Virus record (IMG/VR): IMGVR_UViG_2693429518_000023
DNA length: 10,738 bases
Source of the DNA: a virus
Taxonomy: Duplodnaviria > Heunggongvirae > Uroviricota > Caudoviricetes
Strand: one strand, 5' to 3'
Part shown: in pieces, positions 5,590 through 6,552 of the stretch
Numbering within the stretch: position 1 is the stretch's first letter
Layout of the letters: the number at the start of each line of letters is the position of its first letter
Notes under the pieces: generated by a model
What the model saw: the letters and a program-made list of their open reading frames with translations, nothing else
Told to the model about the DNA's origin: nothing
The model's database searches: none
Translations under genes and position numbers: made by a program

Positions 5590-6552
5590 ATGAGCAGCAA
5601 GCTTCATGGTCTTGTCTGGGAAGGGTGCGCCTTCACCGGCATGATCTTATCCAGGGTGGCGGTTATGGCCCGTCTTGCAGACTACAGCAATGACGAGGGC
5701 GTGTCATGGCCTGCCATTGAAACTATCCGGCGTCAGATCGGTGCAAGAAGTGAATCCACAGTGAAATCGGCTATTGCAGAACTGGCGAAAGAGGGCTGGC
5801 TGACGAAGGAAGAGCGTAAGGTCGGTGGGCGTAATGTAAGCAATATCTATCGGCTTAATGTGGAAAAACTCGAAGCAGCTGCTGCGGCGGCGCGTGAGTC
5901 ATATAAACCGAAAAGAAAAATTAGCCCGGCAAAAAATGACCCGTTAACAGTTGACCCGTCAAATATTGCCCCCTCAACGGTTGACCCGTCAAATTTTGAT
6001 GGATCAACTGTTGATAACAAACTGCCGATTAGGGGGGCGATGATTGACCCCGATCCGTCAGTATTAAAACCTGATCCGTCAGATAAAAGATCTTCTTGTC
6101 CGGACGCTTCGCAACCGGACCCGCAGACGGCTGAACAGAATTTTTTAACCCGACACCCTGACGCGGTTGTGTTCAGTGCGAAAAAACGCCAGTGGGGAAG
6201 TCAGGAAGATTTGGTGTGCGCACAGTGGATCTGGGGACGAATCGTGAGTCTTTACGAGCAGGCGGCCAGCGATGATGGCGAGATCACGAGACCGAAAGAA
6301 CCCAACTGGACTGCATGGGCCAATGACGTGCGGACAATGCGGATGCTGGATGGCAGAACTCACAGACAAATTTGTGAAATGTTTGGGCGTCTCCAGCGGG
6401 ATTCGTTCTGGGTAAAAAACATCATGAGTCCGGCAAAACTCCGGGAAAAATGGGATGAACTGGTTATCCGCCTGGGGCGTTCGCCCGCGCAGCGTTGCGT
6501 GAATCACATTTCTGAACCGGACACTGAAATACCGCCGGGATTCAGGGGGTGA
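5590..6552 (+). CDS. Replication initiation protein (lambda O-like), 320 aa from ATG 5590
   Basis: N-terminal winged-helix DNA-binding domain. Central repeat-encoding linker (VDPSN repeats) containing iteron-like DNA repeats. Immediately followed by the DnaC-like gene. Track start GTG 5575 is an alternative. Confidence 0.8.
   Translation: MSSKLHGLVWEGCAFTGMILSRVAVMARLADYSNDEGVSWPAIETIRRQIGARSESTVKSAIAELAKEGWLTKEERKVGGRNVSNIYRLNVEKLEAAAAAARESYKPKRKISPAKNDPLTVDPSNIAPSTVDPSNFDGSTVDNKLPIRGAMIDPDPSVLKPDPSDKRSSCPDASQPDPQTAEQNFLTRHPDAVVFSAKKRQWGSQEDLVCAQWIWGRIVSLYEQAASDDGEITRPKEPNWTAWANDVRTMRMLDGRTHRQICEMFGRLQRDSFWVKNIMSPAKLREKWDELVIRLGRSPAQRCVNHISEPDTEIPPGFRG
5947..6084. repeat. Iteron-like direct repeats (candidate replication origin) inside the O-like gene
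   Basis: Exact 14-mer TTGACCCGTCAAAT at 5951-5964 and 5981-5994, each with internal dyad TTGAC/GTCAA. Degenerate copies at about 6007, 6042 and 6071 on a roughly 30-bp period, followed by an A-rich stretch. Parallels lambda ori inside O. Confidence 0.5.

Follow-up and report, generated by a model that had tools for sequence, protein, structure and literature searches.

The segment at positions 5937-6099 of the DNA analysed here (a stretch of 10,738 nucleotides, referred to below as the window) is probably the replication origin of a cryptic lambdoid prophage of the CP-933P/Sp12 type, and it lies inside the prophage's own initiator gene, in the part that encodes a linker. Every prediction of this reading that sequence comparison can address was borne out. 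For lambdoid phages, an origin within gene O is textbook knowledge (PMC7466680); we found no description of one for the family of O-like initiators with an HTH_36 domain. Coordinates of the features discussed are given in Table 1.

Table 1 Features of the putative origin and of its surroundings, with positions in the window
Feature	Position	Strand	Sequence or remark	Basis
ydaS (Cro analogue) and ydaT (CII analogue), rightward operon reading into the O-like gene	4843-5567	+		Pfam YdaS_toxin, YdaT_toxin
O-like replication initiator gene, 320 aa	5590-6552	+		PHROG 391, HTH_36, homology to the lambda O C-terminus
Coding region of the HTH_36 winged-helix N-terminal domain, presumed dyad-binding module	5590-5880	+		Pfam
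Array of five 15-bp dyad units, presumed initiator-binding iterons	5937-6014	.		Repeat finding, dyad scan, relatives
Array unit 1	from 5937		TGACCCGTTAACAGT	
Array unit 2	from 5952		TGACCCGTCAAATAT	
Array unit 3	from 5967		TGCCCCCTCAACGGT	
Array unit 4	from 5982		TGACCCGTCAAATTT	
Array unit 5	from 5997		TGATGGATCAACTGT	
Decayed sixth unit	6012-6026		Mostly outside 5937-6014	
Decayed copy of a 19-bp GC-clamped palindrome	6033-6051	.	GGGGGCGATGATTGACCCC	18-cluster alignment, site lists
A/T-rich segment, presumed DNA-unwinding element	6051-6099	.		GC content, stability, 18-cluster conservation
Module boundary	6052-6085	.		Similarity to genes with other N- or C-terminal domains starts or ends
DnaC-type helicase loader gene	6559-7299	+	TAG at 6751-6753	Intact allele: NCBIfam PRK12377, DnaC

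The window corresponds to the early-right part of a cryptic lambdoid prophage from E. coli, of serotype O157:H7 or O55:H7. It begins with an integrase, an excisionase and a truncated exonuclease, followed by the DicF RNA and ydfC, a ParE/RelE-type toxin with an antitoxin, and a repressor-like gene. The order continues with ydaS (Cro-like), ydaT (CII-like), the O-like gene and a DnaC-type loader, and it ends with DUF1627, DUF977 and DUF551 genes and then hok/sok. The CP-933P/Sp12 immunity region studied by Jurenas et al., who described the roles of ydaS and ydaT of CP-933P and named the downstream gene 'o' without describing an origin, has the gene order of the window (PMC8630535).

The product of the O-like gene matched the PHROG 391 profile 'replication initiation O-like' over its full length (residues 1-320, E=6.9e-115). 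Its N-terminal domain matched Pfam HTH_36 at residues 25-71, scoring 30.6 bits (cutoff 25), and gave a weak match to DnaD_N. PF04492 (Phage_rep_O), which scored 123 bits with lambda O itself, had no match in the O-like N-terminus at E<=1, and a 16-sequence profile compared by hhalign with the lambda O N-terminus revealed no similarity (probability 0.04%). C-terminal residues 153-300, by contrast, aligned with residues 145-277 of lambda O at 34% identity over 148 residues (BLASTP, E=3e-25). Given an N-terminus unlike that of lambda O and a C-terminus homologous to it, the protein is a mosaic, with a lambda-O-type C-terminal domain placed behind an unrelated DNA-binding domain. The repeats described below fall between HTH_36 and the lambda-O-like domain, in agreement with the sequence-only reading of this DNA that preceded our analysis and that had placed them in the linker of an O-like gene. 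An AlphaFold model of the protein obtained from the single sequence had a mean pLDDT of 36.8 and was unusable.

The repeat array occupies nucleotides 348-425 of the gene and constitutes the strongest short-lag self-similarity of the 10.7-kb window: of 60 positions, 46 matched at lag 30 and 41 at lag 15. Elsewhere in the window, the best value at these two lags was 28, and the maximum reached by 200 dinucleotide shuffles was 31. Tandem Repeats Finder reported periods of 15 and 30 over 5925-6014. The sequence-only reading had described two exact and three degenerate copies of TTGACCCGTCAAAT, each exact copy with an internal dyad, recurring at a period of about 30 bp. The two exact copies are present on the + strand (5951-5964 and 5981-5994) with their dyads, but the basic unit is 15 bp rather than 30 bp, as the unit starts in Table 1 show. 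The tally of copies also needs to be amended: the dyad TTGA-N4-TCAA is exact at three places (5951, 5981 and 5996) and has one mismatch at 5966, and further sites of the TGA-N4-TCA type are located 3' of the array, CGATCCGTCA at 6051 and TGATCCGTCA at 6072. The count of TGA-N4-TCA was 10, compared with 3.0 expected, and four of these sites are inside 5952-6081. Lambdoid origins are expected to contain at least four dyad-symmetric repeats; here there are five units together with the two downstream sites.

The units can also be read in an alternative dyad frame, TCAA-N3-TTGA, which is exact at 5974, 5989 and 6004 and has one mismatch at 5944 and 5959, and the array holds three perfect palindromes whichever frame is used. 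Both frames are compatible with the sequence; as the form that is bound, we favour the spacer-centred 19-bp one, because its half-sites about 11 bp apart would suit a winged-helix dimer and because it occurs as an isolated palindrome in relatives. With a spacing of 15 bp, adjacent sites are on different faces of the helix and adjacent 19-bp sites would overlap, and both the spacing and the overlap are points against the origin reading. Position 5969 is C in the window; the commonest allele in relatives is A, which makes unit 3 a perfect dyad.

For comparison, relatives of the gene were drawn from phage records, GTDB genomes and IMG/VR and were grouped into 18 clusters with less than 90% identity over the first 185 residues; among these relatives, N-terminal identity to the window drops to about 38%. 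The top self-similarity of the gene was at lag 15 or 30 within gene nucleotides 280-400 in 14 of the 18 clusters and at lag 33 or 21 within nucleotides 366-441 in the other four. The position of the repeats within the gene is thus conserved across the family. An 11-bp core, Y-C-A-R-N3-Y-T-G-R, was clustered in the linker of every relative.

The repeats might simply be a by-product of a flexible protein linker, (x-D-P-S-N)n, that was made by slippage, leaving the DNA without a function in its own right. Each unit is in frame and five codons long, the encoded linker is of low complexity and rich in Asp, Pro and Ser, and the number of units varies from 3 to 10 between relatives, as slippage predicts. 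The distribution of conservation within the codons, however, runs against this explanation. When 70 units from 13 clusters were aligned, the bases that carried most information were the T that closes codon 1 (62 of 70), the GA of codon 2, the TCA of codon 4 and the first A of codon 5, with the third base of codon 4 being A in 68 of the 70 units. The residue at codon 1 varies (S, I, V, F or N) though its third base is so constant, and at codon 4 Ser may give way to Pro or Leu with CA or TA retained. A peak of conservation at third codon positions, in a motif that straddles codons, is characteristic of a DNA site.

Codon usage pointed in the same direction. Ser codons in the linker were TCA in 100 of 169 cases (59%), compared with 41 of 346 (12%) elsewhere in the genes (Fisher p=1e-28, 18 clusters); these codon statistics are not independent, as units duplicate and relatives share ancestry, and their direction is the same in every cluster. 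Asp-Pro was encoded by GAC-CCN in all 35 array cases, and the downstream GATC segment used GAT-CCN, thereby creating GATC, in 39 of 43 cases, although 18 of the 39 GAT counts follow from how the region was anchored, so that the GAT bias is partly circular. When synonymous codons were resampled with the linker peptide fixed, at least four TGA-N4-TCA sites arose in 2 of 100,000 trials (P=2e-5). A DNA dyad, moreover, is not needed by a peptide repeat. These observations show that the repeats are constrained as DNA and not as protein, and the linker by-product explanation, which we consider extremely unlikely, is largely refuted. The sequence-only reading had named, as one finding that would refute it, repeats explained solely by a protein-level repeat; codon bias, third-position conservation and resampling all indicate that the protein repeat alone does not explain the array. 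The gene would also provide a clean example of binding-site DNA dictating a peptide, rather than the reverse.

Downstream of the array, relatives carry a GC-clamped palindrome of 17-19 bp that is near perfect, for example GGGGTCAATGGTTGACCCC or CCTCCAGAATCTGGAGG; every E. coli copy, including that of the window at 6033-6051, has lost half of it. In the 18-cluster alignment, the palindrome is followed by a conserved element composed of GATCC, A/T-rich DNA, GATCC and AGATAAAAGATCT, which corresponds to 6052-6092 in the window, and the A/T-rich segment showed nucleotide-level conservation in 18 of 18 clusters. The window has GATC sites at 6052, 6073 and 6089 within this segment, and two to four GATC sites were present per aligned 120-nt segment in every one of the 18 clusters. 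The AT content of the segment was 0.50-0.68 across the clusters (0.60-0.68 in 15 of 18), compared with a gene average of 0.43-0.54. The sequence-only reading had noted an A-rich stretch after the repeats. A low-GC segment is indeed found there (6060-6099, GC 0.325), but its AT skew of about 0 makes it A/T-rich and not A-rich; a second low-GC stretch, upstream of the array at 5900-5939, is truly A-rich.

Within the gene, stability is lowest in the 40-mer at 6058-6097, whose dG of -46.9, compared with a window mean of -55.4, places it among the 1.5% least stable of the window. The same stability calculation, applied to lambda, recovered the known AT-rich region of that phage (dG -43.0 per 40 bp). 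The A/T-rich part here is short and weaker than that of lambda by these values, and this difference counts against the origin reading.

The downstream element also coincides with a module boundary. Phage and E. coli matches with other N-terminal halves begin at query positions 478-511 (6052-6085 in the window), and it is likewise after 6052-6085 that relatives whose C-terminal domain is Phg_2220_C diverge. Two unrelated C-terminal domains are joined behind the element, and several N-terminal types stand in front of it. Breakpoints at this place, and the combination of several N-terminal types with two or more unrelated C-terminal domains, are what one would see if 6033-6099 were kept mainly as a shared recombination 'linker' between initiator modules and its conservation reflected frequent exchange. 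We regard this explanation as quite improbable, since it leaves the upstream array, the GATC and codon bias and the stability minimum unaccounted for. A module boundary and ori also coincide in lambda, for which crossover sites are annotated within ori, so that recombination at this point is compatible with an origin and is not a rival to it.

The sequence of the dyad arms follows the winged-helix subfamily of the initiator, within a small sample of 18 clusters. The arms are TCAAY in the group that contains the window, Erwinia and Edwardsiella, and TCAGA/TCAAA in the group of SfIV, phiNP and YeP1; the Klebsiella group has TCAAA and the most divergent group CCAGA. From the breakpoints at 6052-6085 together with this tracking of arms and subfamily, it follows that the N-terminal domain and the repeats form a single specificity module that is exchanged as a unit, as happens in lambdoid hybrids. 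The O-like genes of SfIV/SfII (Shigella), phiNP (Citrobacter), YeP1 (Yersinia) and Kp4866-6 (Klebsiella) belong to the same N-terminal family as that of the window, the N-terminal identity of relatives being 41-77% over the first 100 residues and 38-64% over the first 169. They have 15-bp arrays at the same position in the gene and share the GATCC/A/T-rich element, but they and related genes differ in their arms (TCAGA/TCAAA or CCAGA) and in copy number, and in some of them the C-terminal domain is Phg_2220_C and the downstream partners are different. YdaU of the Rac prophage was rejected as a relative, being a DUF1376 protein with a different N-terminus. Matches in a plasmid collection came mostly from prophages within large records; a circular record of 16 kb was suggestive but unreliable.

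Dyads of about 11 bp are typical of operators, and the immunity regulators of this prophage bind DNA. The dyads might therefore be operators that serve the control of transcription and not replication, either for autoregulation by the O-like protein or for PaaR2, YdaS or YdaT. The PR/PRM region (4746-4842), however, contains different repeats, of the CACTAAAC type, and no TCAA-N3-TTGA, and a promoter and terminator scan of 4300-7400 identified none in or near the array. SfIV, phiNP and YeP1, with quite different immunity genes, nevertheless keep the array, which tracks the initiator N-terminal domain. On these grounds, a role as operators seems very unlikely.

The arrangement of the element resembles that of the lambda origin, as the sequence-only reading had proposed. 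In lambda, four 18-bp iterons and an AT-rich region lie inside gene O, and the repeats here are located at the same boundary between N- and C-terminal domains; the annotated lambda iterons span gene nucleotides 349-433, and the array starts at 348. In both systems, several repeats with dyad symmetry precede the stretch of lowest stability in the gene; the C-terminal domains are homologous, and the gene order Cro-like, CII-like, O and loader is shared. Unlike lambda, with its Phage_rep_O domain, the initiator here has an HTH_36 N-terminal domain; its units are 15 bp apart with shared flanks, compared with a spacing of 20-24 bp in lambda; its AT-rich part is weaker and has three conserved GATC sites; and its partner is a DnaC-type loader rather than lambda P.

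Lambdoid origins within O have been described for the Stx phage 933W and for a 'P27' plasmid by Kozlowska et al. (2020, PMC7466680), who reported that extra iterons lengthen the linker peptide and that synonymous iteron mutations abolish plasmid establishment in Stx-phage origins. The O proteins and iterons (ATCCCTCAAAACGAGGGA) of 933W and of this 'P27' plasmid are of the lambda type, unlike the O-like gene here, and the 'P27' O protein was consequently set aside as evidence for the HTH_36 family. The GenBank record of phiP27 (AJ298298, L17), by comparison, contains an initiator of the HTH_36 family with dyads of the TCAGAATCTGA type. Our literature search found no publication on an origin in SfIV/SfII, phiNP, YeP1, Kp4866-6 or related prophages, nothing relevant on a published origin for HTH_36 O-like initiators or for SfIV, and, in the searchable literature, no binding, unwinding or replication data for HTH_36 O-like initiators.

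Iteron replicons of plasmids (Rep/RepA type) have direct repeats of about 17-22 bp, or about two helical turns, and were rejected as a model, given that the array has a 15-bp spacing and consists of dyads that are not purely direct repeats. A different, possible likeness concerns Dam- and SeqA-sensitive origins such as E. coli oriC and P1 oriR, in both of which a GATC cluster is situated in the easily melted part that adjoins the initiator sites. Here, three GATC sites lie within 6052-6092 in the presumed unwinding region, as a cluster in an A/T-rich segment that is conserved in 18 of 18 clusters. Unlike in oriC, DnaA boxes are not enriched: there is one perfect box at 5859-5867 (- strand), which is not conserved among the relatives examined, and the total count equals that expected by chance.

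The mechanism that we propose follows the analogy with lambda and is supported by the anatomy of the element. Dimers of the N-terminal domain would occupy the dyads and form an O-some-like complex. Stress from this complex would destabilise the A/T-rich DNA with GATC sites next to it, after which the C-terminal domain, together with the neighbouring DnaC-type loader, would recruit the host DnaB helicase. Rightward transcription from a PR-like promoter, passing through ydaS and ydaT, would cross the site as in lambda. A speculative extension, which we judge unlikely, is that HTH_36 O-like initiators define a distinct origin architecture. In it, 19-bp dyads would overlap on a 15-bp repeat, placing neighbouring dimers on different faces of the helix, and would be coupled to an unwinding element in which the conservation of two or three GATC sites throughout Enterobacterales would imply that Dam methylation or SeqA controls prophage origin firing.

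The sequence-only reading had further pointed out that the DnaC-like gene is interrupted by an amber codon, so that the origin may be orphaned. The amber codon is present and differs from the O157:H7 sequence by one C>T substitution. Among 55 near-identical IMG/VR loci, however, the codon was CAG in 53 and TAG in two, and an orphaned origin would apply only to this rare allele. The same loader gene in the O55:H7 strain DEC5E also has TAG and is annotated as a pseudogene with an 'internal stop'. In a strain with the amber allele, the origin is probably inactive unless the loader of another prophage substitutes for the missing one. Genomes that carry the prophage have additional DnaC-type loader genes elsewhere, at two to four places per record, and complementation in trans is therefore conceivable.

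It is a serious possibility, although short of probable, that the element is a former origin that has become a dead relic in this lineage, with sites too decayed and no loader to permit firing. In addition to the loader amber, the dyad of unit 3 is degraded in the window by the C at 5969, as is the palindrome at 6033-6051; the prophage integrase of the closest matching genome is frameshifted and its exonuclease is truncated; and Sp12, one of the prophages of O157 Sakai with DnaC-type loaders, is non-excisable (Asadulghani et al., PMC2669165). Against such decay, the O-like gene retains an intact reading frame, with conservation of 99% or more across hundreds of genomes, three perfect dyads are left, and the other loader genes mentioned above are present in the same genomes.

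With regard to concept, an origin at this site would add little beyond the lambda paradigm, the overlapping dyads at 15 bp and the conserved GATC sites being variations worth noting. The element would, on the other hand, provide a candidate origin for a very common type of initiator, found also in phages and prophages of Shigella, Klebsiella, Yersinia, Erwinia and Edwardsiella; the gene was matched in 2232 of 5426 complete E. coli genomes. In O157 and O55 strains, it would mark the place at which prophages of the CP-933P/Sp12 type begin replication if derepressed, with the loader defect being strain-specific.

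In the window, position 5969, within the third unit of the array of presumed iterons in the O-like gene, is occupied by C (TTGCCCCCTCAA), with the corresponding codon specifying Ala. An A at this position (TTGACCCCTCAA, specifying Asp), which renders the third unit a perfect dyad, was observed in 31 of 56 close relatives. Phage lambda carries a palindrome, TCGTCAGAGAATTCTGGCGA, to the right of its AT-rich region (positions 560-580 of our lambda record L192, corresponding to lambda 39159-39179), and this palindrome is similar to the dyad CCGTCAGAATCTGGCGG of SfIV-type O-like genes (positions 1893-1911 of record L003).

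A perfect DnaA box, TTTTCCACA, is located on the minus strand at 5859-5867, approximately 70 bp 5' of the array. The total number of DnaA boxes across the window matched that expected by chance, and this box was not conserved in SfIV or Kp4866-6.

The amber codon at 6751-6753 in the DnaC-type loader gene reflects a single C>T substitution (CAG>TAG). Of 55 IMG/VR loci nearly identical to the window, only 2 carry this allele. Over the 1 kb from 6400 to 7400, a 100% match to the window was found only for O55:H7 DEC5E and strain fS25a. The loader gene is intact in most O157:H7 genomes.

We also observed a prophage segment alone as a circular E. coli "plasmid" of 15,977 bp (L194, whole record NZ_CP148542.1), in which cI/cro is followed by the O-like gene, the array and the DnaC-type loader, and then by lysis genes. 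The O-like reading frame is interrupted by two homopolymer indels. Given that replicon typing of this record detected no other replicon, it may represent a natural replicon resembling lambda-dv, or else an assembly artefact.

The COOH-terminal tail of the O-like protein (...SEPDTEIPPGFRG, residues 300-320, window 6487-6549) showed a weak match to the COOH-terminus of DnaT (PDB 2ru8, 6aep and 9zbt; NCBIfam PRK02854, primosomal protein DnaT). A comparable ending, IP.GF[RK]G, is also present in SfIV, Kp4866-6 and the most divergent relatives, even though their COOH-terminal domains differ. The tail may serve as a docking peptide.

Other prophage features of the window
Feature	Position	Strand	Remarks
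21-bp tandem repeat	1959-2045		4.1 copies, 70% matches; inside truncated exonuclease gene, minus strand
DicF antisense RNA	2565-2616	-	76.7 bits, above Rfam gathering score
ParE/RelE-type toxin, small antitoxin and repressor-like gene	3882-4745	-	At cI position
sok antitoxin RNA	9411-9586	+	113.5 bits, above Rfam gathering score

The tandem repeat ranks second in self-similarity within the window. The DicF and sok RNAs are consistent with a Qin/DicB-type prophage bearing a hok/sok locus. The toxin, antitoxin and repressor-like genes probably constitute the paaR2-paaA2-parE2 locus, which in CP-933P forms a bistable switch with ydaS/ydaT (PMC8630535).
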